This document shows, one piece after another, positions 1,688-63,733 of a stretch of DNA of 64,000 nucleotides. The stretch lies in NCBI GenBank assembly GCA_963837785.1, contig CAWIOW010000031.1, forward strand, positions 38,256-102,255, read 5' to 3'. The notes below the pieces were generated by a model. It did not search any database, was not told where the DNA came from, and worked only from the letters and a program-made list of their open reading frames with translations. Positions within the stretch are counted from its first letter, which is position 1. Each line of letters begins with the position of its first letter. The position numbers and the translations under genes were made by a program. Source of the stretch: an uncultured Deinococcaceae bacterium (lineage in GTDB: Bacteria > Deinococcota > Deinococci > Deinococcales > Deinococcaceae).

Positions 1688-1717
1688 CAGCCAATTACAG
1701 CCAATTACAGCCAATTA
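1688..1717. repeat. Tandem repeat CAGCCAATTA x3 (10 bp), intergenic
   Basis: Read directly from the sequence. Confidence 0.95.
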
Positions 1718-1780
1718 AGCTAAACCAACTTGAAAGCCCACATTCAACACCCCTCAAAGCAAACTTTAGGAGCAACAAAA

Positions 1781-2077
1781 ATGAGCCATAAATGTTATTT
1801 ACTTGGTTTACTTGGTAAAAAGAATTTAGTCGTCTACAGCGTCACCCACAAAGGTAAAGCCCGCGCCGCAGGTAAAGTAGGCTGTAAAGTTACTGAGTTA
1901 AGCAGGCAAGTTCAAAAGACCTACTTGCAAAACAATTTGCAAAAAAAGACCATTCTCGAGCAAGGTACAACTAACACTATTTGGCTTAGTGTCCATGCCA
2001 TCTGTAGCTTAACCGCCGTCTGTAGCTTAACTAGTAGTTTAATTAAGGGTGCGTTTAAGGGTATGGAGATCGTATGA
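1781..2077 (+). CDS. Possible small hypothetical protein (98 aa)
   Basis: AGGAG RBS precedes ATG 1781 and the stop overlaps the next gene's start (ATGA). No recognisable domain. Confidence 0.3.
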
Positions 2078-3045
2078 GACTCCATTTAAGCCTTTATTTA
2101 AGCCTATTGGCCCTAGCTGGATTTACAGCAATGGCAGCGGCCCAATCTGCCCAGCCGCCTAGTATTCCAACACTTAGTATTCCAACACTTAGTATTCCAG
2201 CGCTTAGTATTCCAGCGCTTAGTATTCCAATAAATGTGAGTGCCACCACCAGTATTATTGGAGACTTTGTAAAAGTTGTTGGGGGCAACCGTGTAAACGT
2301 AAATTTAATTGTCCCAGTGGGAAGTGACACTCATACTTTTCAGCCCACAACCGCTGTTATTCGTGGCCTTAGCAAAAGCCAAATTCTCTTTGCCAACGGC
2401 GCAAACCTAGAGCCTTGGCTGCCCAAATTAACAACCTCTGCCCCAAAAGTGCCCGTTAAAATACTCACTGAGGGCCTAAAATTACATCCTTTTACCGAAG
2501 AAGACTCCACAGCTGCCACCGACCCCCATGCTTGGTGGGATATGAAGCTAGCCGCTGGCTATGTTAAAAATGCACAAGAGGCACTGAGTAAAATTGATCC
2601 AGCGGGCAAGGCTATTTATGCCAAAAATGCGGCGTTCTATACCAAACAACTTATGGCCCTAGACCAGTACGCCCAAAAACAGTTTGCTACCCTGCCAAGC
2701 GCCAATAAAAACATTGTAACCAATCACGACGCCCTCAATTATTTTGCACTTCGCTATCATCTTAAAGTGGTTGGCGCAGTAATTTCTGGCCTAAGCACCG
2801 AGCGCGAGCCTACCGCTAAAGAATTAGCCAATTTGGTGAAAGTGGTTAAAAAAAGCGGCACCAAAGTCATTTTTACTGAAAATACTGTAAATGCACGGCT
2901 GGCCCAAACCCTTGCCAGCGAAACTAGAGCCAAAATAGCACCCCCGCTATACACCGATGCACTAGGCCCAAAAGGAAGCGCTGGCGAGACTTTTCTAAAG
3001 GCATTTAGGTACAACATAGATACGATGGTGCGGGCCTTAAAGTAA
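2074..3045 (+). CDS. Zn/Mn ABC transporter substrate-binding protein (ZnuA/TroA family)
   Basis: Signal peptide; motifs [20 protein letters not shown] and YTDALG. Confidence 0.93.
2161..2230. repeat. In-frame 15-bp repeat AGTATTCCA(ACA/GCG)CTT x4.7 encoding [10 protein letters not shown]
   Basis: Two ACA copies followed by two GCG copies, just after the signal peptide. Confidence 0.95.
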
Positions 3046-3056
3046 GGCTTGTCTTG

Positions 3057-3104
3057 AGTGGTCTGGAAGATTAGTGGTCTGGAAGATTAGTGGTCTGGAA
3101 GATT
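3057..3104. repeat. Tandem repeat AGTGGTCTGGAAGATT x3 (16 bp), intergenic
   Basis: Read directly; followed by AGCCAAATTATT x2. Confidence 0.95.
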
Positions 3105-3207
3105 TTATTGGGCTTATTGCTAAGCCAAATTATTAGCCAAATTATTAAATGATGACCTGTTCTGCTGCCATTCTCACACCATAAGAGCAAAAGAGTATGA
3201 TGATCTG

Positions 3208-3930
3208 ATGCTTGGGGTAAGACAACTTACAGTGCACTATGGTTCACAAGTGGCCTTGCAAGACGTTAGCCTGCGTTTTGAAGCGGGCCAATTTACCGCC
3301 ATTATTGGCCCAAATGGTGCAGGCAAAAGCACTTTACTTAAAACGATGGTGGGTATTCTTCCCGACCCCCAAGGCGCAGTACAGTTTGACGTCGGACACA
3401 CCGCCCAAGATTGCGTTTCTTATGTACCACAGCAGCAAACATTAGATTGGGGCTTTCCGGTTACGGTCTGGGATGTTGCTATGATGGGGCGTACTGGGCG
3501 ACTAGGTTGGTTTAAATGGCCCGCCCACAAAGACAGGCAATTGGTGGTGCATGCCCTTAAAGAAACTGGCGTTTTTGACTTGCGTAGTCGCCATATTGGG
3601 GCACTTTCGGGTGGGCAGCGCCAACGGGTTTTGCTGGCGCGGATGCTGGTGCGGCATGGGCATCTTTTGTTACTAGATGAACCACTAACCGGAGTAGACA
3701 GCAGCACCCAAGAGCAGTTAATGGCCTTGCTGCGTGCAGAGGCTGGTAAAGGCCGCGCTGTGGTAATGATTACCCATGACCTAGAACAAGCCCGTCGTTG
3801 GTGTGACCGAATTGTGTTATTAAACAAGAAAGTGATTGCCGATGGCACCCCAGAAGAGGTTTATACACCGCAAAATATAGAAGCCACTTTTAGCAGCAGC
3901 TCCCTTGGACATAGCCATGCAAAAGCCTAA
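3208..3930 (+). CDS. Metal ABC transporter ATP-binding protein
   Basis: Walker [10 protein letters not shown], signature LSGGQ, Walker B LLLLDEP. Confidence 0.95.
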
Positions 3931-5071: not shown

Positions 5072-6109
5072 ATGGCACGGTTGGTTACTTTATTTACAGG
5101 GCAATGGGCAGATTTGCCGCTGGCAGAGTTAGCGCCGCTAGCAAAACAAATGGGGTACGATGGCTTAGAATTAGCGTGTTGGGGCGATCATTTTAATGTG
5201 CAGGATGCTTTAAACAAGCCTGAATACCTGCTCCAAAAACGGGCGCTATTGCAACACCATGGGCTTGAGTGTGTGGCTATTAGTAACCATTTGGTGGGCC
5301 AAGCTGTATGCGACCTGATAGACCCAAGGCACCAAAGCATTTTGCCCGCGCATGTGTGGGGCGATGGTGAACCTGAAGGTGTACGCAGGCGGGCCGCTAA
5401 GGAATTAGCCGACACAGCACGGGCCGCCGCTAAATTTGGGGTGAAGGTAGTTAATGGCTTTAGTGGTTCTAGCGTCTGGCATAGCCTTTATGCCTTTCCG
5501 CCCACCGATCAGGCGTATTGGTCGGCTGGCTTTAAGGATTTTGCCACGCGCTTTAATCCTATTTTGGAGGTGTTTGATGAGGTGGGCGTTAATTTTGCCC
5601 TAGAAGTTCATCCCACAGAAATAGCCTTTGACATTGCTACCGCCGAGCGAGCACTAGACGCTGTGGCCTATCACCCGCGTTTTGGCTTTAATTACGATCC
5701 CAGTCACTTAGCCTATCAACACGTCAATTACATAGAATTTTTGCGACGTTTTTCGGCGCGGATTATGCACACTCACATGAAAGACGTGTGGTGGGGGCAT
5801 GGCAACGGCGACATAGGCGTATTTGGCGGTCATAGCAGCTTTGGCGACCCCCGCCGCTACTGGGATTTTAGGTCGGTTGGGCGTGGCAACCTAAAATTTG
5901 AGGACATTATTGTGGCCTTAGATGACACTGGCTACACTGGCCCGCTTAGCGTGGAATGGGAAGACAGCCGCATGGAACGCGTGTACGGCGCAACCGAAAG
6001 CGCTGCTTATTTACGCAAATTAGATTTTCCGTCTTCTCATGTGGCCTTTGACGCTGCATTTACTGGAAAAGATACAGCTAGAAAAGATACAGCTAGGAAA
6101 GACCCATGA
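5072..6109 (+). CDS. Sugar phosphate isomerase/epimerase (xylose isomerase-like TIM barrel)
   Basis: Motifs [25 protein letters not shown] and SVEWED. Confidence 0.9.
6068..6103. repeat. In-frame 15-bp repeat (KDTAR x2.4) at the C-terminus
   Basis: AAAGATACAGCTAG(A/G) repeated. Confidence 0.85.
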
Positions 6110-9179: not shown

Positions 9180-9234
9180 ATAGAGATCAAATAGAGATCA
9201 AATAGAGATTAAATAGAGATTAAATAGAGATTAA
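9180..9234. repeat. Tandem repeat ATAGAGATYAA x5 (11 bp), intergenic
   Basis: Two C copies followed by three T copies. Confidence 0.95.
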
Positions 9235-11250: not shown

Positions 11251-11290
11251 TAAATTGGTACTGGTAAATTGGTACTGGTAAATTGGTACT
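11251..11290. repeat. Tandem repeat TAAATTGGTACTGG x2.8 (14 bp), intergenic
   Basis: Read directly from the sequence. Confidence 0.93.
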
Positions 11291-13568: not shown

Positions 13569-13604
13569 TTAATCTCAACCTTAATCTCAACCTTAATCTC
13601 AGCC
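13569..13604. repeat. Tandem repeat TTAATCTCAACC x3 (12 bp), intergenic
   Basis: Read directly; the last copy is degenerate. Confidence 0.9.
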
Positions 13605-15006: not shown

Positions 15007-16236
15007 ATGAACCAACCCCAGCCAAATTTACAGCCAAATTTACAGCCAGATAAGCTTAACTTTCCCATGTTTATTAGCGTAGAGCAGGCTAGGCAGCATT
15101 TACTGGACTTGCTCCCGCCACCACAATCAGAGTGGGTGACTGTGAGGGCGGCGCTTGGTCGTATTTTGGCGCAGGATTTGCCTGCATTGGTCAGCCACCC
15201 AAGCGCTACTGAAAGCGCCTTAGACGGTATTGCCGCCCGCGCCGCCGATACTGCTTTAGCCAGTGCTGCTGAGCCTGTTTGCCTTAAAGTCATTGGGGAA
15301 AGTCGGGCCGGATTGCCGTTTTTGGGCCAAGTAGAAGCTGGCGAATGTGTGCGGATTTATACCGGAGCGCCCATGCCAGCCGGAGCCGACGCCATTTGCC
15401 CAGTAGAACAACTTAAAGATGATGAACCAAATCATGTTTTGCTGCTGCGCCCCGCTTTGGTATCAGATGTAAGGCCCGAAGGCGGCGATTTTAAGGCTGG
15501 CGAAGTGGTGTTAAATGCGGGCTTATGGCTTACTGCGCCGCGTGTGGCTTTGGCAGTGGCTTTGGGTTATGCCAAAATTCCGGTACAAAAAAAGTGGCGG
15601 GTGGCGCTGTTATCTACCGGAGATGAAGTAGTAGAGCCAGGGCAGCCGCTGTTGGCGGGCCAAGTCTATGACAGCAACCGAATTGGCCTTGGGGCCATGC
15701 TGCAAGAAAGCGGCTGTGAGGTCATTCAGCTAGGGCACGCGCCAGACAGCCCCGAAGCGCTACAAGCTAGTATTTTGGGTGCAGGTGGGGCCGATTTACT
15801 GCTAACCAGCGGCGGCGTAAGCATGGGCAAATACGACTTTATGCGCGACCTGCTGATAGAACATGGCAAAGTATCATTCTGGAAAGTGCGAATGCGTCCG
15901 GGGGGGCCAGCTATTTTGGGTGGCTGGAACGGGCTGCCTGTGTTTGGTTTGCCGGGCAATCCGGTGAGTAGTTTGGTGGTGTATCACGTTATTGTTCGCC
16001 CAGTCTTAACGGGTCAGCCGCTGCAACTGCTAAAGCTGCGGGCCGCTACCCCATTTCGGGGTTTGCCAGACAAAACAGCCTTTTGGCGCGGCGTTATTAA
16101 AGACGGCCTTGTGCATGATTATAAAAACCAAGGCAGCGGCATTTTGCGCTCTCTTTCTGAGGCAGGGGTATTGGTTATGGTTGCCGAAGGTGCGGAGGTT
16201 AAAGCGGGCGATGACGTGGACGTTATTTTGCTATAG
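15007..16236 (+). CDS. moeA: Molybdopterin molybdotransferase
   Basis: Motifs SALDG, IYTGAPMP, STGDE, SGGVSMG and GLPGNP. Confidence 0.94.
   Translation: MNQPQPNLQPNLQPDKLNFPMFISVEQARQHLLDLLPPPQSEWVTVRAALGRILAQDLPALVSHPSATESALDGIAARAADTALASAAEPVCLKVIGESRAGLPFLGQVEAGECVRIYTGAPMPAGADAICPVEQLKDDEPNHVLLLRPALVSDVRPEGGDFKAGEVVLNAGLWLTAPRVALAVALGYAKIPVQKKWRVALLSTGDEVVEPGQPLLAGQVYDSNRIGLGAMLQESGCEVIQLGHAPDSPEALQASILGAGGADLLLTSGGVSMGKYDFMRDLLIEHGKVSFWKVRMRPGGPAILGGWNGLPVFGLPGNPVSSLVVYHVIVRPVLTGQPLQLLKLRAATPFRGLPDKTAFWRGVIKDGLVHDYKNQGSGILRSLSEAGVLVMVAEGAEVKAGDDVDVILL
15019..15048. repeat. In-frame 12-bp repeat CAGCCAAATTTA (QPNL) at the MoeA N-terminus
   Basis: Read directly; 2.5 copies. Confidence 0.85.
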
Positions 16237-16844: not shown

Positions 16845-16949
16845 AGCAAGACCAACCTAGCAAGACCAACCTAGCAAGACCAATCTAGCAAGACCAATCT
16901 AGCAAGACCAATCTAGCAAGACCAATCTAGCAAGACCAATCTAGCAAGA
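16845..16949. repeat. Tandem repeat AGCAAGACCAAYCT x7.5 (14 bp), upstream of the rhodanese gene
   Basis: Two C copies followed by five T copies; no spacers. Confidence 0.97.
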
Positions 16950-18970: not shown

Positions 18971-19010
18971 GTTTGTTTGGGTTTGTTTGGGTTTGTTTGG
19001 GTTTGTTTGG
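18971..19010. repeat. Tandem repeat GTTTGTTTGG x4 (10 bp), intergenic
   Basis: Read directly from the sequence. Confidence 0.95.
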
Positions 19011-19044
19011 GTCGGCATAGGTGAGTGTTGTGCAGCGTGCCTGA

Positions 19045-19084
19045 GATTCTTGTTGGTTGATTCTTGTTGGTTGATTCTTGTTGG
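19045..19084. repeat. Tandem repeat GATTCTTGTTGGTT x2.9 (14 bp), intergenic
   Basis: Read directly from the sequence. Confidence 0.93.
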
Positions 19085-20330: not shown

Positions 20331-20811
20331 CCTGCTGGTTGCTGCTGGCATTTTAAGAGACAAATTTGGGCGGGTATTGTTGGTAGGCAACGACTGGCAA
20401 GGGCATGGGCGGGTTCGTCATACCTTGCCAGGCGGTGTGGTAGAAGCAGGCGAAACCCTGCCTGAAGCGCTATACCGTGAAATTTTGGAAGAAACGGGAC
20501 TTAAGCTAACCGGAATTAAACACATGGCCTACACCGTGCATATAGAAGACGAGCGGCGCGGCGAGCGGGCTATTGCGGTGGCCTTTGAAGCCACTTGGGA
20601 AGGGCTACTTAATCCTGCCGATCCCGATGGTTTTATCGTAGAAGCCCGTTTTTGTGGTATAGAAGAAGCCCTAGATAAGCTAGAAGCGCCGCCCATGCGT
20701 GAGCCTTTAAGTGATTTTTTAAAGACGGGTGAGGCCGGACGTTTTTACGCTTTTAAAGGCTGGGATGGTCGGGGCGGCTTAAGAATTCCAGCTTTGCGGA
20801 ACCAAGATTAA
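20317..20811 (+). CDS. NUDIX hydrolase
   Basis: Nudix box [24 protein letters not shown]. Confidence 0.92.
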
Positions 20812-21093
20812 TGGGATGATAGCCTTATTAGAGAGAGAGTTTTGTCTTCTGAAAGTATCTGATTAGCGCTCCTTTAACTTAAGTTGGATCATTTTTATAT
20901 CTTCCCAAACGTAAAAAATCACATTAGATTAAATCACTATTTCTTTTTAAGCTGAAAACATAAGCGTGCTGGACATCGTTTTTTTAATTGTATGATGATT
21001 ATAATGTGAAAACTAGAGCTGTTTTTAGCATTAACAGAGAAAAATTTTCGTCGTCTGAGACAGTAAATTTCTGAAGGAAAAAGTTGTCTAGCT

Positions 21094-21109
21094 CCCCCCC
21101 CCCCCCCCC
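21094..21109. repeat. C16 homopolymer
   Basis: Read directly; about 300 bp upstream of the first island gene. Confidence 0.9.
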
Positions 21110-21406
21110 ATAATCCGAATCGTCCTATGATGAACGAGCAACAGAAATTTAGGAACCTCAAATGCTAGAGGAATGAATATCTTTAAGCATCCGAGGTTAA
21201 GTGAATTATACCAGCATCAAATCTGTAGTTAAAACAGCACGACTACGGGTTCATGACCCCGTGAAAATCTTTGCCAATCTATAATCACTAATCAGATACC
21301 AAAGCTTATATGGAAACGGCAAGTTATTTTATTTCGCCCGACGCTTTTAGTTTGGTTCTATGGTATCTAAGAGTCATGCGTAGTTTTTCTCTTGTGGAGG
21401 TACTTA

Positions 21407-21505
21407 ATGTCAATTACACTTACTGGATCAGATCTAACAATCGGTGATGTTGAGAAAATTTCACGTTTACACCTGAGGAAAAAGCTTTTCTTTTCGATGA
21501 AGTAA
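21407..21505 (+). pseudogene. 5' stub resembling a histidine/aromatic amino-acid ammonia-lyase (MIO family)
   Basis: GGAGG RBS, then MSITLTGSDLTIGDVEKISR, like the HutH N-terminal I-x-L-x-G-x-x-LT-x-x-DV-x-x-(I/V)-(A/S)-R pattern. It stops after 32 codons. Confidence 0.55.
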
Positions 21506-23426: not shown

Positions 23427-23455
23427 GTAAAATACCAACCATGGGAGGCGCAATA

Positions 23456-26854: not shown

Positions 26855-26876
26855 ATATAATTCGATTATGAATTAT

Positions 26877-26968: not shown

Positions 26969-27214
26969 AGCCAAGGGTATAATCTTATTATGGCTGAACG
27001 TTGCAGTGAGTCACTAATATTTCTAGAAGAGGCTTTAAAGATCCTACGTACTCGATACCCCATATTTCCGCTAATTGAAAAGCGCATTCTTGAGATGATG
27101 CTTGTGGCCCACGCGGAACAGGGGCATGACCAAACCGTGATAGAACTTGAACACGCGCTTGATCAACAAGAAGCCCTTGCCGCCGCAAGACTGGGAGCTG
27201 CTTATACTTCCTGA
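26969..27214 (+). pseudogene. 3' fragment of a helical/TPR-like protein, truncated at the IS remnant
   Basis: QGYNLIMAERCSESLIFLEEALKIL...; begins abruptly at the IS junction and ends at the MFS gene. Confidence 0.4.
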
Positions 27215-28457
27215 AAAACTGTCTGAAAAACTGTGGAATAAGAACTTCACTGCTTACTTTGCAGCCACTGGGTTTTCATGTTTTGGAAGTACCTTCACAT
27301 TAGTAGCTCTGGGCTATCTAACCTACGAGAAAACTGGTTCTACCACAGGCTTTGCTATTAGCCTAGCCATCTCAGCAGGCACGGCTCTGCTAAGCCCTAA
27401 AGCTGGCGTTCTGGTCGATAAATATCCTCTCAAACCGATGCTCGTACTAGGCGATTTTATTCGCGGCTTGCTGCTTCTAGCTTTAGTTTTTGCAACCATA
27501 ACAAACCACTTTCATGTGGCTTTGGTATATATAGTTAGTCTTTTTAATGGGCTAATTGGACTTGTTTACAGGCCGGCTATTGGCAAGTTAATTCCCCGCA
27601 TGGTTCCCAAAAACCAGATCATGCGGGCCAATGGCTTAATGGGATCTATGTATAACACAGCTTCGATTCTTGGTTTCTTACTAAGTGGCACAGTTATGGC
27701 CTTTGTTGGCTCTACAACTACTATGCTTATTGATGCACTGACATTTCTTGTTATGGGCCTCGTCTTCTTATTCATTAATACAGGCGAGAAAGCCGCTGTA
27801 GCTTCAGCTAAACAAACTTCTACGCCAAAGCTCGAAAAGCCCGAAGGAAGCTGGCCCGTCTTTCAGTACATGGTAAGCAGCGGCATGCTCATTTGTCCTT
27901 TGCTCATTTTTCTTAGTTCCTTATACATTGCGCCGTTTCGTATCATTCTGCCTGAGCAGTTTAGCAGCCACATATTTGGTGCATTTTTCGCCTTTTACGC
28001 GATAGGAACTTTGCTTGCGGGCTTAACCACTGCCTATTTTAACCAGCGACTACTCCGCCGAGATGTACTGATAGTTAGTGTGTTGGCTGCACCTGTCTGT
28101 CTGGTACTTGCGGCCCTAACAACTCAGCCAAGCGCTTACTTTGCTATAGCACTACTTCTAGGCTTCTTCAATGACACCAGCAGTACGATCGCCTATTCCA
28201 GTATTCAGATGCTCATTCGTGATGACATTCGAGGTCGGGTGTTTGGCATTATGGGCCTAATTGAACGCGGCGGTATGCCCTTAGCGTACCTCACCCTCTC
28301 TGGTATGATTAATGCCTACTCCACCAGCATAATCTATATCATCTTCGCTACCGTTCTCTTAGCCATCTCACTGGGCATCATTACCTATTTGGTAAAACAA
28401 AATCTGTTAGGGCCAGACTCTCTTACCACTACAGACTCCCTTACCGCCACCGAATGA
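27147..28457 (+). CDS. MFS transporter (DHA3/macrolide-efflux-like); true start probably near 27220
   Basis: Motifs LWNKNF, AGVLVDKY, ANGL and RGRVFG. Confidence 0.88.
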   Translation: MNTRLINKKPLPPQDWELLILPEKLSEKLWNKNFTAYFAATGFSCFGSTFTLVALGYLTYEKTGSTTGFAISLAISAGTALLSPKAGVLVDKYPLKPMLVLGDFIRGLLLLALVFATITNHFHVALVYIVSLFNGLIGLVYRPAIGKLIPRMVPKNQIMRANGLMGSMYNTASILGFLLSGTVMAFVGSTTTMLIDALTFLVMGLVFLFINTGEKAAVASAKQTSTPKLEKPEGSWPVFQYMVSSGMLICPLLIFLSSLYIAPFRIILPEQFSSHIFGAFFAFYAIGTLLAGLTTAYFNQRLLRRDVLIVSVLAAPVCLVLAALTTQPSAYFAIALLLGFFNDTSSTIAYSSIQMLIRDDIRGRVFGIMGLIERGGMPLAYLTLSGMINAYSTSIIYIIFATVLLAISLGIITYLVKQNLLGPDSLTTTDSLTATE

Positions 28458-29569: not shown

Positions 29570-29651
29570 GGTACTCATAAATGGGTACTCATAAATGGGT
29601 ACTCATAAATGGGTACTCATAAATGGGTACTCATAAATGGGTACTCATAAA
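29570..29651. repeat. Tandem repeat GGTACTCATAAATG x5.9 (14 bp), intergenic
   Basis: Read directly from the sequence. Confidence 0.97.
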
Positions 29652-35529: not shown

Positions 35530-37078
35530 TATTCAAGGTTTGGTAGCTGTGGCGGTTATTGGTACGTTGCGGGGCAAGTTGCCTGTTCATGGGGAAGCTG
35601 GTCAGGGTGAAATTGGTCAGGGTGAAATTGGTCAGGGTGAAGCTGCTTTAGCTGAAACTTTAAATAGTATCGTTAAACCCGACCCAGAAAGCACTTTACT
35701 GGCCCGTGCAGCCATTGCAAGCTTGGCCCAAGTGGCAGGCCAGCAGCCAAAACGGGGCGAGGTTAGTGCTGTTCAAAGCGCCCCACCTGAAACGCTTTCT
35801 GCCGCTCCAGAAGTATTTGCACGGCATTTTGAAACCATTATGGCTCATACTCCTGCCCTGTTGCCAGATGCCCTGTTGCCAGAGTGGTTAAAACTGTGTT
35901 CAGCGGGTAGCTGGCATATTCCACACCGTTTTTTGCCAGTTGTACTGGAATACGCGGCAGGTGGCAGAATAGAAGTGCAAGAAGCCTTGGCCCCTGCTTT
36001 AAGCAAGCGTGGGGCGTGGCTAGCCCAATTAAATCCAAAATGGCGCAGATTAGCCGAGATTGACCTTGAAGTTTGGGAAAAGGCTACCGACGCGGAAAAA
36101 GAAGCCATTATTCGTACCCTTAAAGCACACGATTTAGCCGCCGCTGCCACATGGTTAAACACACACTTTAAAACCGAGCCGACCACCGTGCGTAAGCGCT
36201 TGCTGAACAGCCTTCAAAGAAGTTGGCGGGCTGAAGATGCCCAACTAGAACCGCTGTTAGAGGAGGCTTTAACTGATCGCAGCGCCGATGTGCGAGAAGT
36301 GGCCCGCGTACTATTGCAAGGTATTCCCGCTAGCGCCTATAACACTCGTATGGCGGCCCGTGCAAAAGCGCTGATTTCTACCGAAAAAGCGAGCCTGCTA
36401 GACAGGTTAAAAGGCAAGAAAAAATATTTTCTTAATTTGCCAACCATGCCTGATTCTAAGCTTAAGCAAGATGGTCTAATCGAAACTATTCAGGCTGAAA
36501 CCACGCAAGCCAGCCAGCGGCTAGAAGAATTATTGACTAAGACACATTCCCAGCGGCTACTGGAAGAATTAGAGCTAAACCCTAAAACACTTTGCGAATT
36601 GGCCCAACACTTAGATGCCCTAGATGCTTTGGCACGCGGCGCTGTGGCTGTAAGTCACTCAGCTTTGGCGTTGCAACTCTTGCCTTACCTTAAATCCACC
36701 GACCCACAATACCTGCCTTTGCTGCGTATTTTGCCAGAGCAGCAGCGGCTAGAAAAACTGCACGAATTACTAAAAACCGAAAACTATTCAATGATTGGAC
36801 TGTTATTAAGCACTTTGCCCAAGCCTTGGCCTATAGCCGTTAGTAATAGCGTGCTGCAAAAGCTGCTTAACAATAAACAAAGTGAAAGAAAGTATGATGA
36901 GACCAATTGGGACGCTGTTTCAAGGTTGGCAGAGGTGGGCATGCACCCAGACACTACTTTTTCAATTGAAGAGCTGTCTCATATTACCGATTATGCCTAT
37001 CTGCTGCTCATTAATTTGCACACTACAACAGAATTACGCGCCCAAATATACGCCGATTTTAAGGCAGCGCGGGTATGA
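35522..37078 (+). CDS. DUF5691-like helical-repeat protein
   Basis: AVIGT, LLPEWL, RGAWLAQLNPKW and LEEALTDRS..VR motifs; position within the SWIM-AAA-VWA cluster. Confidence 0.75.
   Translation: MSDIQGLVAVAVIGTLRGKLPVHGEAGQGEIGQGEIGQGEAALAETLNSIVKPDPESTLLARAAIASLAQVAGQQPKRGEVSAVQSAPPETLSAAPEVFARHFETIMAHTPALLPDALLPEWLKLCSAGSWHIPHRFLPVVLEYAAGGRIEVQEALAPALSKRGAWLAQLNPKWRRLAEIDLEVWEKATDAEKEAIIRTLKAHDLAAAATWLNTHFKTEPTTVRKRLLNSLQRSWRAEDAQLEPLLEEALTDRSADVREVARVLLQGIPASAYNTRMAARAKALISTEKASLLDRLKGKKKYFLNLPTMPDSKLKQDGLIETIQAETTQASQRLEELLTKTHSQRLLEELELNPKTLCELAQHLDALDALARGAVAVSHSALALQLLPYLKSTDPQYLPLLRILPEQQRLEKLHELLKTENYSMIGLLLSTLPKPWPIAVSNSVLQKLLNNKQSERKYDETNWDAVSRLAEVGMHPDTTFSIEELSHITDYAYLLLINLHTTTELRAQIYADFKAARV
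35600..35641. repeat. In-frame 15-bp repeat GGTCAGGGTGAAATT (GQGEI) x2.8
   Basis: Read directly; a second 15-bp duplication (PALLP/DALLP) lies at about 35854-35883. Confidence 0.9.
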
Positions 37079-38600: not shown

Positions 38601-38798
38601 ATGAGTATGCGAAGTGTTTATTTGAGTGTTTATTTGAGTGTTTATTTGAGTGTTTATTTGAGAGTTAACTTAGCCGTTTTACTCAATGCGGCGGCTATAA
38701 CTGCTTGCTTTGGCATAATTTGGCTGGTATTACGATTTGAGACTTTTATAAATAAAGAATTGAGCAGTTTAAATAAAATAAAGAGTAATTTTTTATGA
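38601..38798 (+). CDS. Possible small membrane protein
   Basis: AGGAG RBS, one hydrophobic segment, and ATGA overlap with the next gene. Confidence 0.35.
   Translation: MSMRSVYLSVYLSVYLSVYLRVNLAVLLNAAAITACFGIIWLVLRFETFINKELSSLNKIKSNFL
38613..38660. repeat. Tandem repeat AGTGTTTATTTG x4 (12 bp; SVYL)
   Basis: Read directly from the sequence. Confidence 0.95.
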
Positions 38799-41116
38799 TT
38801 TCTATTTTTCCTATTCGTCATCACGGCCCCGGTTCGGCGCGTTCACTGCAAAAAGCACTAGAAAAGCTTAGGCCCGATATTGTACTTATTGAAGGCCCAG
38901 CCGACGCCGACCCCGTTATTCCGTTTTTATCGCACCCACAATTAAAGCCGCCAGTGGCACTTTTGGCTTATGTTAATGACAATCCTGCTAGGGCTGCTTT
39001 TTGGCCTTTTGCGGTTTTTAGTCCGGAATTTGTGGCATTTCAATGGGCGGCACAGGCTAGCAAAGTGGCGCGTTTTATGGACTTGCCTGCTAGTGCCACT
39101 TTAGGCATAAGCAAGCCCGACCCAGACAGTGCTAATTCAGACAGTGCTAATTCAGACAGTGCTAATTCAGACAGTGCTAATTCAGACAGTGTTAATTCAG
39201 ATGATGAACTGCGTGCCGACCCTATGCAGGTTTTGGCACAGGCGGCAGGGTACAGCGATTTTGAGTGCTGGTGGGAAACGTTGGTAGAAGCACGCGGGGA
39301 CGATACAGACGTATTCGCGGCGATTTTGGAGGCCATGCAAGAACTACGGGCCACCTCCAAAACGCTTACATTGCGCGAAGCCCAGCGTGAGGCGCACATG
39401 CGCGGGGCTATACGGGCGGCCCAAAAAGAAGGATTTATCAATATTGCTGTGGTTTGCGGGGCATGGCATTCGCCTGCGCTGGATGTAGAAGCATTTAAGG
39501 TGAAAGACGACACTGCGCTGCTAAAAGGGCTGCCTAAAGCCAAAGTAACCCTAACTTGGGTGCCTTGGACACATGGGCGATTGGCAAATATCAGCGCGGG
39601 AGAGTGGCAGTACGGCGCGGGGGTGCGCTCGCCAGGGTATTACCACCACCTTTTTATTACGCCAAAGGAGGTAACTGAGCGGTGGTTTGTACGTGTGGCG
39701 CGGCTCTTGCGTGATGAAAAACTAGAAGCCAGCAGCGCCAGCGTGATAGAGGCAACCCGCCTAGCCAATACCCTTGCAGCCCTTCGTGGACGCACTCTTG
39801 CTGGACTAGATGAACTAAACGAGGCCGCCCTAAGTGTGTTTGGCTGGGACAGTGACCTTCCGCTAAGGCTTATCTCCGAAAAACTGATTGTGGGTGAGGC
39901 TTTAGGCCGAGTACCCGACGACACGCCCACCGTGCCACTGGCCCAAGACTTAAGCAAGCAACAGAAAAAACTGCGCTTAAAGGTTCAAACCGAGCAGCTT
40001 AAATTAGAGCTAGACCTGAGAACCGACAATGATTTGGCGCGAAGTACGCTGTTTTATCGCCTTAATTTGCTGGGCATAGCCTGGGCCAACCAGCGGTACA
40101 GCAGTGGGCAGGGCACTTATAAAGAAGCCTGGGCACTCACTTGGAAACCCGAAATGAGCGTGCAAGTAGTAGAGGCCAGCCTCTATGGTCAGACTGTAGA
40201 GCAAGCCGCTAGCGCACAGGCCAGCGAAACGGCCCGCCGTAGCCAGTCTCTAATTGAACTTAGCAAACTACTAGAAATTATTCGTTATGCCGACCTGACC
40301 GCAGCCTTGCCTACCGCGCTAGATTCCTTAAATGCTCGCGCCGCCCAAAGCGCCGATGTCAGCGATTTGTTGGAAGCCTTGCCGCCGCTGGCCCGCCTTT
40401 CTCGCTATGGGGATGTGCGCAGGCGCAACGCTGGGGCGAGTGAGCAAATTAATAACGCTATCAATAACGCTATCAATAACGCTACCGATAACGCGACTGC
40501 CACCGCTTTAGCGTTACTTACACGCGCCTGTGTGGGCTTGCCTATTGCCGCCATTGGTTTGAGCGACACCGCTGCCGAAGTGTTGCAAAAGGCTGTAGCG
40601 AATGCTGATGCTGCCGTACATTTGCTAGCCAATGCCGACGCCCTAGCCGAATGGCAAGAAGCCCTGCAACACCTAGCCGATAGGGAAGACACTCACCCCT
40701 TACTAAACGGCGACGCTACCCGCAGGCTACGCGACGCCCAAAAATTAAATACAGATGAACTAGAACGCCGTATGGCTTTGGCCTTGGCTGCAAGTCATCC
40801 CCCGCTAGAAGTTACGGCTTGGTTAGACGGGTTTTTGGGCAAAAATGGTGACCTGCTTATTCATGATAAGACCCTGCTATCCTTAATAGACGGCTGGCTT
40901 AGCTTTCTTGATCCCGAAACTTTTCAAGAAGCATTGCCACTCTTAAGGCGAACCTTTTCGCGCTTTGCCAAAGCTGAACGTAGGGCTATTGGGGAAAATT
41001 TAAAAGGTGGCAGCCTAAATATTAAGGCTGTGCAAAACGAGCTACACGCACAGCGGGCCATGCGAGTGGTGCCGATAGCCTTAAGAATACTGGGAATAGC
41101 CAAGCTAGAAAAATGA
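38795..41116 (+). CDS. DUF5682 family protein (YehM-like)
   Basis: Motifs IRHHGPGSA, LIEGP, FSPE, REAHM and VVCGAWH. Confidence 0.88.
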   Translation: MISIFPIRHHGPGSARSLQKALEKLRPDIVLIEGPADADPVIPFLSHPQLKPPVALLAYVNDNPARAAFWPFAVFSPEFVAFQWAAQASKVARFMDLPASATLGISKPDPDSANSDSANSDSANSDSANSDSVNSDDELRADPMQVLAQAAGYSDFECWWETLVEARGDDTDVFAAILEAMQELRATSKTLTLREAQREAHMRGAIRAAQKEGFINIAVVCGAWHSPALDVEAFKVKDDTALLKGLPKAKVTLTWVPWTHGRLANISAGEWQYGAGVRSPGYYHHLFITPKEVTERWFVRVARLLRDEKLEASSASVIEATRLANTLAALRGRTLAGLDELNEAALSVFGWDSDLPLRLISEKLIVGEALGRVPDDTPTVPLAQDLSKQQKKLRLKVQTEQLKLELDLRTDNDLARSTLFYRLNLLGIAWANQRYSSGQGTYKEAWALTWKPEMSVQVVEASLYGQTVEQAASAQASETARRSQSLIELSKLLEIIRYADLTAALPTALDSLNARAAQSADVSDLLEALPPLARLSRYGDVRRRNAGASEQINNAINNAINNATDNATATALALLTRACVGLPIAAIGLSDTAAEVLQKAVANADAAVHLLANADALAEWQEALQHLADREDTHPLLNGDATRRLRDAQKLNTDELERRMALALAASHPPLEVTAWLDGFLGKNGDLLIHDKTLLSLIDGWLSFLDPETFQEALPLLRRTFSRFAKAERRAIGENLKGGSLNIKAVQNELHAQRAMRVVPIALRILGIAKLEK
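39123..39201. repeat. In-frame 15-bp repeat CAGACAGTGCTAATT (DSANS) x5
   Basis: Read directly; the last copy is DSVNS. Confidence 0.96.
40451..40486. repeat. In-frame 12-bp repeat AATAACGCTATC (NNAI) x3
   Basis: Read directly from the sequence. Confidence 0.88.
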
Positions 41117-43982: not shown

Positions 43983-44033
43983 CCTATGACTAATCCTATG
44001 ACTAATCCTATGACTAATCCTATGACTAATCCT
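43983..44033. repeat. 12-bp repeat CCTATGACTAAT x4 containing the start codon (MTNP x4)
   Basis: Read directly from the sequence. Confidence 0.96.
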
Positions 44034-45206
44034 GATACAGAACGGTTTCGGCGCTGGCGTTTGGTGCTGGGTGGGGGAGAGGCAGACGGCCTAAGCTTTG
44101 GCGAGAGTGGGGCCGAGATGCAGTTTTCTATGGAAGATAGGCGGATGGACAGCGCACTTAGTGAATTGTATGAAGGTGGCAATTCGGCAAAGGGTGGGCT
44201 AGGGGGTAGTGCGCCGAAAGTGGCTCGCTGGCTGGCAGATTTGCGCGAGTTTTTCCCGGTAAGTGTGGTGCGGGTTATGCAGCAAGATGCCATAGAGCGC
44301 CTTAATTTGACCCAGCTTTTATTTGAGCCAGAAATGATGGAAAACATTGAGCCAGACGTTAATCTTGTGGCAACGCTGCTGACGCTTAAGGGGGTGATGC
44401 CCGCCAAGGCCAAAGACGCTGCCCGCGCTGTGGTTCGCAAGGTGGTAGATGACCTCATTAAACGCCTAGAAGAGCCGACCCGCGCCGCTGTTTCGGGCAG
44501 CCTTAACCGTGCCCAGCGCAATTTTCGCCCACGCCCCAGTGAAATAGATTGGGACAAGACCATTCGGGCCAACCTAAAAAACTATCTTCCAGATCGCAAA
44601 ACCATCATTCCAGAGCGCCTAATTGGTATGGGCCGCAAACGCCGCAGCCTGCGCGACATCGTGTTATGCCTTGACCAGTCGGGCAGCATGGCCTCTAGCG
44701 TTATTTATGCGGGTGTGTTTGGCGCAGTGCTTGCCAGTTTGCCCGCTGTAAGTACCCGCGTGGTGGTGTTTGATACCGAAGTGGTGGATTTATCCGAGGA
44801 CTTAGATGACCCCGTAGACGTGCTGTACGGCATTCGCTTGGGCGGCGGCACCGATATAAACCGCGCCCTTGCCTACTGCCAAAACATTATTGATAAGCCA
44901 GAGCAAACCATTTTAATTCTTATTTCTGACCTTTACGAAGGCGGCAACGAGCGCGAAATGCTGGCTCGTGCGCGGGTGCTTAAAGATGCGGGCGTTAATT
45001 TTATTGCGCTGCTGGCCCTCTCTGATGATGGTGCGCCTAGTTACGATCACGGTGTGGCCCGTGCTTTTGCGGGAATGGGTATTCCGGCTTTTGCCTGTAC
45101 GCCCGATTATTTTCCGGCGTTAATGGCAGCGGCTATTCGCGGTGACGACATTAGCACTTGGGCAGGCGACCAAGGAATAGTAACCAAGGGCGGGGCTGTC
45201 GGGTAG
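43986..45206 (+). CDS. VWA domain protein (YehP/CoxE-like)
   Basis: RRWRLVLG, MIDAS DQSGSM, GGGTDI and ISDLYEG. Confidence 0.9.
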   Translation: MTNPMTNPMTNPMTNPDTERFRRWRLVLGGGEADGLSFGESGAEMQFSMEDRRMDSALSELYEGGNSAKGGLGGSAPKVARWLADLREFFPVSVVRVMQQDAIERLNLTQLLFEPEMMENIEPDVNLVATLLTLKGVMPAKAKDAARAVVRKVVDDLIKRLEEPTRAAVSGSLNRAQRNFRPRPSEIDWDKTIRANLKNYLPDRKTIIPERLIGMGRKRRSLRDIVLCLDQSGSMASSVIYAGVFGAVLASLPAVSTRVVVFDTEVVDLSEDLDDPVDVLYGIRLGGGTDINRALAYCQNIIDKPEQTILILISDLYEGGNEREMLARARVLKDAGVNFIALLALSDDGAPSYDHGVARAFAGMGIPAFACTPDYFPALMAAAIRGDDISTWAGDQGIVTKGGAVG

Positions 45207-46278: not shown

Positions 46279-46361
46279 CGCTACTCCTTATCATCCACTT
46301 CGCAATCATCCACTTCGCATGGTCTATTCTAGATGGTCTGAAATAATTGTACACTCTTGAC

Positions 46362-46946
46362 ATGACTGAAGCAAGTCTTGGCCCTTCATCTTTTATTGTG
46401 TTGGGATTGTTGTCACTTTATGGCGCGGGTACTTCCTACGAGCTTAAGCGCTGGGCTGATGAATCTGTGGGTTACTTCTGGACTTTTCCACGCTCTCAGC
46501 TTTATGCCGAACCCCAGCGCTTAGTCACCCTTGGTCTACTTACAGAGCAACAGGAAGAATCAGGCCGCCGCAAACGCACTTTTAAAATTACACAGGCGGG
46601 CCAAGAAGCTCTAAAAGCTTGGTTGGGTCGGCCTGCGGGTGTGCCAGAACTGCGAGACCTTGGTCTGCTTAAATTGTTTTTTATAGACTGTGCCAATGTC
46701 GAAGCTTTACCACACCTAGCTGCCGAGCAATTGGCCCTTCATCAAGCCCGATTGACTGAGTATGAGAAGTTGCAAGAGGCCAATCATCACTTAGAGGGGT
46801 CTTCGGAAGCCACCACCCTACGAATGGGATTTTTGTATGAGCGGGCCAGTATCGCTTTTTGGTCAGAAGTACAAGCATCCAGCCCACAAGCATCCAGCCC
46901 ACAAGCATCCAGCCCACAAGCATCCAGCACTATTCAGGCTGATTAG
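46362..46946 (+). CDS. PadR family transcriptional regulator
   Basis: GYFW...SQLY, ITQAG..AL..WL and LLKLFF; TACACT-N6-ATG start. Confidence 0.88.
   Translation: MTEASLGPSSFIVLGLLSLYGAGTSYELKRWADESVGYFWTFPRSQLYAEPQRLVTLGLLTEQQEESGRRKRTFKITQAGQEALKAWLGRPAGVPELRDLGLLKLFFIDCANVEALPHLAAEQLALHQARLTEYEKLQEANHHLEGSSEATTLRMGFLYERASIAFWSEVQASSPQASSPQASSPQASSTIQAD
46871..46928. repeat. In-frame 15-bp repeat ACAAGCATCCAGCCC (QASSP) x3.9 at the C-terminus
   Basis: Read directly from the sequence. Confidence 0.96.
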
Positions 46947-46953: not shown

Positions 46954-46994
46954 ATACAGATGTACCTGATACAGATGTACCTGATACAGATGTA
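46954..46994. repeat. Tandem repeat ATACAGATGTACCTG x2.7 (15 bp), intergenic
   Basis: Read directly from the sequence. Confidence 0.92.
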
Positions 46995-49325: not shown

Positions 49326-50341
<1,016 letters not shown>

Positions 50342-50970: not shown

Positions 50971-51026
50971 AGTGGTTGTTCTAAAGTGGTTGTTCTAAAG
51001 TGGTTGTTTTAAAGTGGTTGTTCTAA
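50971..51026. repeat. Tandem repeat AGTGGTTGTTCTAA x4 (14 bp) overlapping a promoter
   Basis: Read directly; the last copy runs into TAAAAT-N6-ATG. Confidence 0.95.
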
Positions 51027-51035
51027 AATAGAACC

Positions 51036-56462: not shown

Positions 56463-58403
56463 TTAGGCGGGTGCTGTGCCCTCTGGTGATAAAATGGTTA
56501 TCGCCCCTCTAGTGCTTGCATCCGTCTCTCGGTCAAGTTGCCCGCCCTCAAGCAAAGTGGCAAATTCGGCCCCCGTTAGGGTTTCGCGTACTAACAAAAT
56601 TTCTACGATCTTGTGCATCTGTTGCAAATACTGCTGGGTCAGCCTCAGCACTCGTTGATAAGCTAAGTCAATTAACTTTTTAACCTCTTCGTCAATTAAT
56701 CGGGCCGTTGCTTCGCTCATCGGCACAAATTGCGATCTACCACCCAGATAATCGCCTTGGTTTTGGGCTAGGGCCACTTTGCCAATTCGGTCACCCATGC
56801 CCCACTCGGTCACCATGCGGGTGGCGATACTGGTGGCTTGCTGAAAGTCACTTTGCGCGCCTGTGGTGATTTCGCCGTAAACAACTTCTTCGGCAGCGCG
56901 CCCTGCCAAAGCCACTGCAATCATGTCTTCTAGAGCAGGGCGGGTGACGTGCAAGCGGTCGTCTGCGTCGGGCATCATGTAGCCAGCCGCCTGCCCCCGA
57001 GGCACGATTGTTAATTTGGCAACGCGGTTGGCGTAGGGCAAAAGTTGAGCAGCAAGGGCATGACCAACTTCGTGGTAGGCAGTGATTTTACGGTCTGCGG
57101 CCCTGACCACCATGCTACGGCGCTCTGGCCCCATCAGCACTCGGTCACGGGCTTCTTCCACATCCTTATCCATAATTCTTTTACGGCCTTCACGGGCGGC
57201 TAACAAGGCTGCTTCATTCAATAAATTTTCTAGGTCTGCGCCTACCATTCCAGCGGTTCGGCGGGCCACCACCCCAAGGTCTACGCTGACATCTAGGGGT
57301 TTTTTACGAGCATGTATTCTTAAAATTTGTTCACGGCCTCGGACATCTGGGGCGTCTACCACCACTTGGCGGTCAAACCGACCTGGACGCAGCAAGGCTG
57401 CGTCTAGCACATCTGGTCGGTTGGTAGCTGCCAAAATAATAACTTCTTTAGCAGAGCCGAAACCGTCCATTTCTACTAAAAGTTGGTTTAAAGTTTGTTC
57501 GCGTTCGTCGTTGCCACCTTGCATACTTAAGCCCCGTTTACGTCCTACTGCGTCAATTTCATCAATAAAGACGATACAGGGGGCCGATTTGCGGGCTTGT
57601 TCAAACATGTCGCGGACACGGGCCGCTCCAACCCCAACAAACATTTCTACAAAGTCTGAACCACTAATAGAAAAATAAGGAACTTTGGCTTCTCCAGCAA
57701 CCGCTTTGGCAAGTAAGGTTTTACCAGCACCGGGCGGGCCAACCAATAAGATGCCGTGCGGAATTCTGGCTCCAAGTTGGTGGTATTTTTCGGGTTGTTT
57801 TAAGAAGCCAACGATTTCTTGTAAATCTTGCTTGGCTTCATCGCAGCCAGCCACGTCGCTAAAATTAAGTTTCATTTGCCCTTCAGCAATCACCGATGCC
57901 TTAGACTTTCCAAACCCGCTGGCGCCTCCGGTGGGATTGCTATTTTTTAGCGTGCGCCAAAGCATAAGCAAGACTAGGGCGGTTAAAATAAGGGGCAAGA
58001 CTTGCCCAATCCAACCAAAAGGTGAGCCTGCTGCCACCACTTTTAAGGGCACATTGGCTGAGCGAATTTTGTCTAAGGTGGCCCCATCCGCAGGCACAAC
58101 CAAAGTACGCGGTCTCATATTGGCAATAAAAGCGACTGTTGCCGTGCCAGAACTATCCAAGATGACTTGTTTTACTTTGTGATCGCTTAAGTCTTTAAAA
58201 AATTTATTGGTGGTGTATATTCCAGAATCTTTTGTCTCTGTACTTGGTTTAATGGTACTTGGTTTAATGGTACTTGGTTTAATGACAGTAGCGTTAACAA
58301 CACTGGAAAAAGCAGAGGCTTGGTGGGCATTTTGCGATTGTGCGGCTGGGCCAAAAGCAAGCAACCCCACAAGCATGATAAGGGGCCGTGCAAAGCGGTT
58401 CAT
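56463..58403 (-). CDS. ftsH: ATP-dependent zinc metalloprotease FtsH
   Basis: [21 protein letters not shown] and HEVGH. Confidence 0.96.
58240..58284. repeat. In-frame 15-bp repeat (IKPST x3) in the FtsH N-terminal region
   Basis: GTACTTGGTTTAATG x3. Confidence 0.95.
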
Positions 58404-62049: not shown

Positions 62050-62145
62050 AGGCTAAGCTTAATTTACTAAGGGTAAGTTTGTCAAATACCTAAAATAAAG
62101 CAAATCTCATTTGACTCTTAGGCAAAAATCGTCTTTAATTTACTC

Positions 62146-62790
62146 ATGGTTAATCAAGGCCGCGCCAGATCAGTGACCGCCAAGGCCGCCAGACAAGCCA
62201 GCATTTTGCAGCAGACTTTGTTGCTGTGGCAGCGGCACCGCTATGAAGAAGTAACGCTGCAACTGGTCGCCGAGCAAATGGGCCTAAGCAAACCTGCTTT
62301 GTATAGTTATTTTTCTAGTAAAGAAAGCCTTTTTTTAAGTTTGTACGAACAGTTGGTAGCTGAATTTTTAAGCGAATTAGCCAAGCATTTGCAATTAGGC
62401 GGACAACATAGCCCGCGCACGCTAGCCATTTTGGTCAGCACACTATTGCTAGAGCGTCCCGAATTTATCCGTTTGGTGGTGTACCTTGCTACTTTGCTAG
62501 AGCGAAATATCAGCCCACAGCGCGCCCTAGAACACAAGTTATGGCTGCTAGACCAACTTGCTTCAGTTACGTTGCTCATAGAGGCTAAGGCTAGCTTGCC
62601 AGCGGGCTTGGGCTTGCAATTACTAACTTATACACAGGCCATGCTAGCGGGCCTTTATCCTATGAGCGACCTCGCTCCGGCTATTTGTCAGGCCTTAGAA
62701 AACGACGAATTAAGTGTGCTAAAAGTGGATTTTAAGCGGGTCTTGCCCGAAGCTCTAGCGGCCTTATACACTGGCCTTGCCCAAACATAG
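62146..62790 (+). CDS. TetR/AcrR family regulator
   Basis: HTH VAEQMGLSKPALYSYFSSKE; divergent from the SDR gene. Confidence 0.9.
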   Translation: MVNQGRARSVTAKAARQASILQQTLLLWQRHRYEEVTLQLVAEQMGLSKPALYSYFSSKESLFLSLYEQLVAEFLSELAKHLQLGGQHSPRTLAILVSTLLLERPEFIRLVVYLATLLERNISPQRALEHKLWLLDQLASVTLLIEAKASLPAGLGLQLLTYTQAMLAGLYPMSDLAPAICQALENDELSVLKVDFKRVLPEALAALYTGLAQT

Positions 62791-63054
62791 ACCAAACATA
62801 GAGTAAGCCTAAGCCAGCATTAACAGCCAGTTGACGCGAATTCTGGACAAATTAATTGACTCAATAGTGTGGCATTAAATGCTTAAACAGTGGGCCAAAA
62901 TGGGCCAAGCCAAGCAAAATGTTAGTTTGTATGCAGAAATACTAGATGATTATTCGTAAATAATTTTAACTAGAAGTTATACGGAACTGCTTTGATTACA
63001 TGTTTTTTAAAATAGACTTGCAACTTCTCTCACCTGATTAGGATATAAAGGGGT

Positions 63055-63633
63055 ATGAATTCAATGACTCCACCAACGGCAGAGGCTAGTGTTCAAACCA
63101 TGTTTGCTCAAAGTAGTGCTGTTTTATCGCAGCCTAGTTCGGCTATTTTCGAGCGTTTTGAGCGGGCTGGTGGAACCAAAAGCGCTTTTACCTATGTTCT
63201 TATTTCGGCATTGGTTTCTGCCCTTATTGCCGCTTTGGGTTCATTGTTTAATGATAATTCTTTTATTGGTCAATTTATTGGCACTTTAATTAGTGTACCA
63301 CTAAGCTTCTTTGTTTTTACTGGAGCAGTCTATTTTATTGGTAAAAACTTATTTAAAGGTACCGGAACCTATCCAGAAGTAGCTTATTCTTTTTCTCTAT
63401 TTTATGTTCCTTTAAGTATTTTGGCAACAGTAATCGGAATCATTCCCATTCTTGGTTGGGCAATAGCATTTTTAATAGGTATAGCTATGATTTATTTTGG
63501 TTATCTTGCCGTGCGTTCTAGCATGAATATCTCTGATACTGGCACATCTATAGCCACACTTGTTTTGTCGTGGATTGCTAGTGCCGTTGTGGGTGGAATA
63601 TTGATTAGCATTGTTCAAGGTATCTTTAAGTAA
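63055..63633 (+). CDS. Yip1 family membrane protein
   Basis: About 5 TM segments; GTGTY and IPILG motifs. Confidence 0.8.
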   Translation: MNSMTPPTAEASVQTMFAQSSAVLSQPSSAIFERFERAGGTKSAFTYVLISALVSALIAALGSLFNDNSFIGQFIGTLISVPLSFFVFTGAVYFIGKNLFKGTGTYPEVAYSFSLFYVPLSILATVIGIIPILGWAIAFLIGIAMIYFGYLAVRSSMNISDTGTSIATLVLSWIASAVVGGILISIVQGIFK

Positions 63634-63641
63634 ATTACTAT

Positions 63642-63691
63642 TTAAATAAGCAGGGGCTAGAGTTTAAATTCTCTAGCCCCTGCTTATTTAA
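63642..63691. terminator. Bidirectional terminator with a perfect 21-bp stem
   Basis: TTAAATAAGCAGGGGCTAGAG / CTCTAGCCCCTGCTTATTTAA. Confidence 0.85.
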
Positions 63692-63733
63692 TGTTTACCT
63701 TATTTAATATTTACCTTATTTGATGTTTACCTT
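63691..63733. repeat. Degenerate 16-bp tandem repeat ATGTTTACCTTATTTA x2.7
   Basis: Read directly from the sequence. Confidence 0.8.

Follow-up and report, generated by a model that had tools for sequence, protein, structure and literature searches.

Locus-unique short tandem repeats throughout a Deinococcus genome carry a strand-specific junction mark that matches topoisomerase I cleavage

The 64-kb stretch of DNA analyzed here (hereafter, the window) lies on one contig (C31:38256-102255) of an uncultured Deinococcaceae genome (2.43 Mb in 49 contigs, 46.9% GC, 74.5% complete) and is crowded with short head-to-tail tandem arrays. These arrays represent a real, genome-wide trait that was not seen in sampled relatives, and their sharp junctions bear a strong and specific signature, namely a C four nucleotides 5' of the break, on the same strand, at both junctions (hereafter, the C(-4) mark). 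Judged from the sequence, this is the published cleavage rule of type IA topoisomerases (TopA), i.e., a lone C 4 nt 5' of the break. The duplications were probably started by TopA mis-ligation, expanded by slippage, and filtered by selection.

Repeat density and distribution

The main census counted exact arrays with a period of 10–18 bp, and Tandem Repeats Finder (TRF) was used for the listed example arrays. The window contains 35 exact arrays, against an average of 0.14 and never more than 1 across 100 local shuffles, and the genome contains 1,110 (45.6 per 100 kb), with arrays on all 49 contigs (16–90 per 100 kb per contig; period 10–17 bp). The initial annotation had reported more than 25 arrays in the 64 kb, and TRF recovered an array at all 19 of its example positions, three of them with starts shifted by 1–8 nt (to 2160, 35599, and 63683). 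It had also described the units as locus-unique rather than as a REP, CRISPR, or dispersed family, and this held genome-wide: 1,045 of 1,076 units are distinct, the most-shared unit sits on insertion sequence (IS) copies, and the window has no Rfam family match. Most arrays comprise two copies (786/1,076), and the largest has 11. Intergenic unit lengths climb to 14–15 bp and drop sharply beyond 17 bp, whereas sharp-junction arrays have a flat length distribution from 10 to 15 bp that ends near 18 bp, placing the ceiling near 17–18 nt. Genome-wide, TRF returned 1,725 rows of period 10–18 bp, of which 785 are perfect and the remainder extend down to 60% matches, a spread showing that the process is old and continuing. 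Inverted unit ends were considered and rejected as a feature (5/401 arrays vs. 1.7%).

Densities in other taxa were taken from samples of loci and not from whole genomes. Other Deinococcus loci total 1.17 Mb and yielded 26 arrays (2.2 per 100 kb), which places the focal genome about 20-fold above sampled relatives and makes the trait lineage-specific among sampled genomes, as anticipated when the density was called atypical of bacterial chromosomes. Low-GC relatives of family f5 have two arrays in 0.26 Mb (0.8 per 100 kb), unrelated TopA loci 20 in 1.25 Mb, and 62 metagenome loci two in 562 kb. Trueperaceae have 40 arrays in 0.73 Mb (5.5 per 100 kb), and no second repeat-rich genome was identified in their 40 topA-centered regions (out of 128 genomes). 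Four of these regions, L405 (G331), L403 (G250), L410 (G326), and L401 (G359), hold 4–8 arrays per 20 kb, mostly 12- and 15-mers that are often clustered; the clusters occupy short stretches that probably correspond to the TopA tail. All five of the richer Trueperaceae genomes checked have polA, which reads in more than one frame in G331 (L425).

Named TopA homologs place the focal genome in Deinococcus, at some distance from known members. Its best TopA homolog is 77% identical, FtsH identity to relatives is at most about 80%, and the nearest of 110 Deinococcus genomes reaches at most 78% DNA identity over a 3-kb ribosomal-protein stretch, leaving no sister lineage above 78% by this measure among the 110. 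A search of metagenomes with a TopA pattern specific to the focal genome gave no matches. The GC content (47%) is below that of every other Deinococcus locus sampled (about 55–73%), and gene order is strongly reshuffled; the S10-spc ribosomal-protein genes have no match and do not lie upstream of the alpha operon.

Arrays are unevenly distributed with respect to base composition. Low-GC windows contain 6.8 arrays per 100 kb (three in 44 kb), compared to about 50 in core DNA, so that probably acquired DNA is poor in arrays, as would be expected if the load grows with residence time. One such island (33–38% GC) occupies about 20800–28400 of the window, is nearly array-free, was probably acquired, and encodes a methyltransferase, an unknown 436-aa protein, an asparagine-synthase-family protein, and two transporter-like proteins; it also includes a run of 16 C at 21094–21109.

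Frame filtering and de novo origin of the arrays

Within homology-defined coding spans, 10 of 11 arrays have units in multiples of three, compared to 197/587 between genes (p 1.6e-4), and 341 of the 359 arrays of at least 10 bp in open reading frames (ORFs) have a unit divisible by three. According to our own gene caller, 301 genes have in-frame disordered insertions derived from arrays. Positions close to gene starts are common (100/335 in-gene arrays lie ≤150 nt from the start).

The single-copy ancestral state proposed as a check in the initial annotation was found in most cases. When orthologs could be aligned, the array was a clear net insertion in six of eight cases, and the other two lie in the variable TopA tail. 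Among IS copies that are 96–98% alike, one 16-bp duplication occurs in 11 copies and is absent from the others, a second is limited to a few copies, and a 15-bp array is present at 1.4, 2.4, and 3.4 copies. The IS copies therefore show gain from a single-copy state and stepwise copy change. Multi-copy DNA totals 174 kb in about 91 segments on several contigs, consistent with IS expansion; one 2-kb multi-copy element also differs by a 17-bp indel, which does not represent a duplication and might have arisen as a reciprocal deletion product.

The organism is present at low depth in a public run (X1; 28/59 contigs at ≥99%). X1 contigs span the array at 13569–13601 and the 15-mer array in topA, the latter without difference; this is weak independent support, given that X1 may derive from the same sample as the assembly. 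Single-base indel errors affect about 5% of tested genes (6/117 conserved genes are frameshifted, including rpoA). In the window, rpoA (about 49336–50341) occupies two frames with a shift near 49530 at a short C run; such a shift in an essential gene points to single-base indel errors in the assembly. No out-of-frame array of ≥10 bp coincides with any of the six frameshifts. These errors, together with a single public run that is shallow, available as contigs only, and perhaps from the same sample, are what could be said for sequencing or assembly artefacts, a reading that is largely refuted and that we consider almost certainly wrong in view of the in-frame bias, the 16-bp duplication common to 11 IS copies, the existence of older degenerate arrays, the X1 contigs that span arrays, and the position of the frameshifts.

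A same-strand C(-4) mark at array junctions

Junctions were defined as sharp when they were no more ambiguous than chance, and the 257 sharpest arrays were aligned and compared to matched local controls. About 40% of perfect arrays have sharp junctions, and 28% of arrays have no microhomology. The alignment revealed that one strand has a C at -4 at each end, lying outside the array at one end and inside it at the other. Both junctions carry it in 107 of the 257 arrays, compared to 10.3% in controls (p 5e-39), and in 103/252 after identical units were collapsed. The mark is restricted to offset 4 (107 arrays vs. 13–28 at offsets 2, 3, and 5–8) and to C (A, G, and T have no peak), and occurs both in genes (30/60) and between genes (64/159). 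Unsupervised expectation-maximization on 476 arrays recovered C at -4 (64% and 54%; G 6%) in an AT-rich context with G scarce around the cut, with a log-likelihood of 382, compared to 92 for simulated duplications. Arrays of at least three copies keep the mark (25/66), those with long partial copies have a weak trace (17–21% at the outer register), and it fades in 5–7 bp repeats, which are mostly chance (11–13%). The earlier statement that arrays share no motif is thus correct for the units, which share no sequence, but not for the junctions, which share a position.

The opposite-strand geometry was not enriched (35/257 observed vs. 45 expected), and we rejected target-site duplication and staggered-cut fill-in, the latter being one of the mechanisms suggested by the initial annotation, on this basis. 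No replication-strand bias was found (106:101, using a noisy skew proxy). Arrays pooled from other genomes are too few for a test of the mark (7/26 sharp ones are marked). In the mostly open-access literature, we found no published account of this genome's repeats and no printed report of a natural type IA or C(-4) duplication signature, although preprint supplements may bear on the latter point.

Topoisomerase I mis-ligation as the proposed origin

Bacterial topoisomerase I and reverse gyrase are described as cutting 4 nt 3' of a C via R169, R173, and Y177 (PMC3467081). The reported in vivo motif of E. coli TopA, which follows RNA polymerase, is a single C in an AT-rich patch (PMC9352719), and an E. 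coli TopA mutant is reported to yield repeat-independent duplications of 2–19 bp (PMC6954433). Building on these properties, TopA would cut single-stranded DNA 4 nt after a C and stay on the 5' end. Instead of resealing, it would ligate the held 5' end to a 3'-OH located 10–17 nt further along the same-sense strand, with ligation favored where its pocket again meets a C at -4; the 3'-OH could come from a second TopA cut on another genome copy or from an end extended by strand displacement. The two-copy product would then expand or decay via microhomology slippage, and selection, the step for which frame filtering provides support, would leave in-frame units in loops and termini as well as intergenic arrays. 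As guesses, the lower unit size could correspond to the enzyme footprint and the upper to the available single-strand length. The earlier idea of an active mechanism that copies local DNA in this lineage is upheld in its outline (lineage-specific and still active), although the specific mechanisms put forward with it fare less well.

The focal genome has a single TopA gene (C37:33578-36575) that retains the R-R-x-x-D-R pocket motif and the catalytic tyrosine. The arginine of HIRDLP is also kept, and there is no substitution at the positions that we take, using E. coli numbering, to be equivalent to R168 and R35. Compared to 36 genus orthologs, the protein differs at 12 conserved columns (orthologs' own range: 0–35). 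The Y177-equivalent is F, which is found in 7/364 Deinococcota genomes, in 2/118 scored homologs, and widely in Bacteroidota. The gene itself (L138) bears repeat-derived insertions: its C-terminal tail has arrays with 12- and 15-bp units, and a loop of the catalytic region contains a stretch built from a 9-bp unit. It reads in two frames, and a topA frameshift was rejected as the cause, being probably an assembly error as in rpoA and the other frameshifted genes; X1 contigs miss the site.

Several results weigh against a TopA origin. About 60% of arrays end in a partial copy, only about 380–400 of 932 perfect arrays fit the no-homology class, the base at -5 is A-rich compared to T in the E. 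coli motif, and there is no transcribed-strand bias (141:118 sense to antisense, p 0.32). The Y177F-equivalent was rejected as the cause: it occurs in 120/120 TopA loci picked for the motif (1.6 arrays per 100 kb) and in genus g19, without the trait. Sequence comparison thus identified no causal change in the focal TopA, which is implicated by the mark and not by mutation. Furthermore, we re-analyzed 30 duplications of the E. coli topA R168C mutator from the PMC6954433 supplement, placed on BW25113 with identical events collapsed and with tdk526 (9-bp ambiguity), the R35P-clone lptG event, 2–3 bp events, ubiI, and three segment-replacement events excluded. Both-junction C(-4) was found in 6/30 vs. 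6.2 expected (7/30 if yejM is the printed 11 nt; it was entered as 12), and the outer junction was marked in 21/30 vs. 17.6 expected (p 0.12). R168 neighbors the pocket, and the mutant may therefore have lost the C(-4) rule.

More tentatively, with chances that we place a little short of even, wild TopA acting as an illegitimate ligase would write 10–17 nt repeats at the density of Borg elements, seed disordered insertions in about 300 proteins, and perhaps be a general source of homology-free tandem repeats, Borg repeats included.

Repair genes and alternative explanations

An inventory of repair genes, recommended in the initial annotation, recovered MutS and MutL (long open frames), two DnaQ-type exonucleases, PolX, RNase HII, RecJ, SbcD, and TopA, along with a weak match to an RNase HI-like protein. 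The presence of both MutS and MutL led us to reject a slippage mutator that lost mismatch repair; of the earlier proposal of uncorrected slippage, what remains is that slippage fits the later expansion and the partial-copy class only. PolA, XseA, topoisomerase IB, and UvrC were not found in the 74.5%-complete assembly, whereas each is present in all sampled complete genus members. PolA processes flaps, and exonuclease VII processes 5'-tyrosyl ends. Loss of either would be a plausible cofactor, although the data do not indicate loss.

In the first alternative, loss of DNA polymerase I, with its 5' flap nuclease, would leave persistent flaps that re-anneal and produce microhomology duplications as in yeast rad27, with TopA acting on flaps at most. 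The frequent partial copies at array ends would be accounted for, and rad27 loss is reported to raise such duplications 7–10 fold (bioRxiv 10.64898/2026.02.28.708716). No PolA polymerase or 5'-3' exonuclease domain was found, compared to 93/93 Deinococcus genomes of ≥90% completeness, and the HAD gene that lies 3' of polA in many relatives is mid-contig without an adjoining polA. However, essential ribosomal-protein genes also lack a match, four of 13 repair/topology genes not found is the expectation from incompleteness (p 0.43), and gene order is too reshuffled for a synteny test. In addition, three other metagenome-assembled genomes without a polA match have only two arrays in 67 kb, the strand proxy given above indicates no lagging-strand bias, and PolA loss by itself does not explain the C(-4) mark. 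We consider this explanation unlikely.

A second alternative holds that the birth rate is ordinary and that strong drift or weak deletion in a low-GC, IS-laden lineage lets arrays accumulate, with the TopA mark being a normal, rarely seen source of homology-free duplications. The low GC content, the multi-copy DNA, and the scarcity of arrays in probably acquired DNA are all compatible with this, and the share of arrays without microhomology (28%) resembles the 25–30% reported across microbes (bioRxiv 10.64898/2026.02.28.708716), implying that both classes were raised together. Selection is nevertheless clearly acting on arrays in coding spans, and the low-GC relatives of family f5 are array-poor, while the pooled arrays of other genomes are too few for testing the mark. 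We consider this explanation quite unlikely.

Another nicking or strand-transfer enzyme of the same geometry, for example an HUH (IS200/IS605) transposase or UvrC making its 3' incision where a C is damaged, is very unlikely. UvrC cuts the fourth to fifth bond 3' of a lesion and excises 12–13 nt, and two Y1 transposase genes are present. Yet the base 5' of the C is A-enriched (81/216 vs. 23% background), so pyrimidine dimers are not singled out, and an excision patch explains a C near one end and not both; uvrC was not found (a weak point in an incomplete assembly). No 4–5 nt target word dominates (the commonest occurs in 15/514), unlike HUH targets.

Arrays in the window

The repeat field of the window (1688..63733) comprises the 35 exact arrays of period 10–18 bp and degenerate ones, and is a sample of the genome-wide trait. 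Representative arrays are listed below; (+) and (-) denote the strand where one was assigned.

1688..1717: 10-bp unit x3.0; intergenic; junctions sharp but without C(-4)
2160..2230 (+): 15-bp unit x4.7, degenerate; lies ahead of the Pfam domain, in frame, in a ZnuA-family gene (2074-3045)
3057..3104: 16-bp unit x3.0; intergenic; only the outer junction has C(-4)
6066..6102 (+): 15-bp unit x2.1-2.5; at the C-terminal end of a xylose-isomerase-like gene; both junctions have C(-4) in register 1
9180..9234: 11-bp unit x5.0, degenerate; intergenic
11251..11290 (+): 14-bp unit x2.9; intergenic; C(-4) at both junctions, outer register
13569..13601: 12-bp unit x2.8; intergenic; spanned by an X1 contig with one substitution and no gap
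15019..15048 (+): 12-bp unit x2.5; N-terminus of MoeA
16845..16949: 14-bp unit x7.5, degenerate; intergenic; highest copy number in the window among 10–18 bp units
18971..19012: 10-bp unit x4.2; one unit shorter in one X1 contig (depth 2.7)
19045..19084: 14-bp unit x2.9; intergenic
27211..27234 (+): 12-bp unit x2.0, sharp; both junctions have C(-4); no other exact array lies in the low-GC island
29570..29651: 14-bp unit x5.9, perfect; intergenic
35599..35641 (+): 15-bp unit x2.9; in frame in a DUF5691 gene
35854..35883 (+): 15-bp unit x2.0; in frame; both junctions are sharp and have C(-4)
38613..38666: 12-bp unit x4.2-4.5; intergenic
39123..39201 (+): 15-bp unit x5.3; adds DSANS repeats, in frame, to a DUF5682 gene
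43983..44033 (+): 12-bp unit x4.2; covers the start codon of a VWA-CoxE gene and multiplies its ATG (MTNP repeats)
46290..46319 (+): 15-bp unit x2.0; intergenic; both junctions are sharp and have C(-4)
46871..46928 (+): 15-bp unit x3.9; adds QASSP repeats, in frame, to the C-terminal tail of a PadR regulator
46954..46994: 15-bp unit x2.7; intergenic
50971..51027: 14-bp unit x4.1, degenerate; both junctions have C(-4) (minus strand)
58240..58284 (-): 15-bp unit x3.0; adds IKPST repeats, in frame, close to the FtsH N-terminus
63683..63733: 16-bp unit x3.2, 91% matches; intergenic

The loss of one unit at 18971 comes from a single shallow contig and may be a graph collapse, and it was not counted as variation. 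The cluster at 34177-45206 encodes SWIM zinc finger, DUF5691, MoxR-type AAA ATPase, DUF5682, and VWA-CoxE genes; it is broken by a membrane protein and a GGDEF-EAL gene, and three of its five genes contain arrays.

Significance and comparison with known systems

The birth of the first two-copy repeat from unique sequence has been described as an open question (PMC6954433), and microhomology accounts for most cases according to a 2026 preprint (bioRxiv 10.64898/2026.02.28.708716). Here, hundreds of fixed events with a single-base, single-strand mark name a candidate enzyme, which makes repeat origin directly testable. If true, the proposed origin would represent a natural, long-running topoisomerase I mutational signature in a cellular chromosome. 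A Borg-level repeat load and in-frame disordered insertions in about 300 genes are tolerated on this bacterial chromosome, and the host genus, Deinococcus, is known for accurate genome repair.

In the E. coli topA R168C mutator (PMC6954433), de novo repeat-independent duplications have similar lengths (2–19 bp in galK) and are linked to a type IA topoisomerase. The mutator is, however, a laboratory mutant with a few dozen events in which its authors report seeing no motif, whereas the focal genome, in which about 1,100 arrays are fixed and the mark is strong, keeps the R168-equivalent and differs in junction spectrum. Microhomology-mediated tandem duplication (bioRxiv 10.64898/2026.02.28.708716) resembles the partial-copy class, the stepwise expansion, and the share of arrays without microhomology. 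It does not extend to duplications that arise without homology and bear a base mark at a fixed position, and the word 'topoisomerase' is absent from the main text of that preprint.

The genome-wide, locally unique non-coding tandem repeats of Ehrlichia ruminantium also lie on a bacterial chromosome, with much longer units, and we know of no enzyme mark for them.

Borg elements offer the closest match in appearance, as the initial annotation had suggested. In the focal genome, 149 arrays satisfy the Borg definition (≥50 nt, ≥3 copies); they make up 0.42% of the assembly and occur at 6.1 per 100 kb, a density equal to that of Borgs, which are listed with 50–76 arrays per 0.66–1.09 Mb (5.3–9.2 per 100 kb, four table rows), compared to 1–4 per Methanoperedens genome (PMC9879509). 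In both, arrays are perfect and locus-unique, in-ORF units are multiples of three, and partial copies flank the arrays. The likeness extends to composition: focal in-ORF units are A-rich on the coding strand (35.6% vs. 26.6%), with disorder-promoting residues increased and W, C, and F decreased, and Borgs are described with A-rich coding-strand units and a similar residue bias (PMC9879509). Nevertheless, Borgs are linear archaeal extrachromosomal elements for which PolB9 slippage has been proposed, and the units given as examples are 18–36 bp (PMC9879509), whereas focal units stop near 18 bp and lie on all 49 contigs of a Deinococcus chromosome, among core genes. The repeats of this genome therefore work like those of a TopA-linked mutator and look like those of Borgs, and they belong to neither system, with no R168 change and no Borg element.

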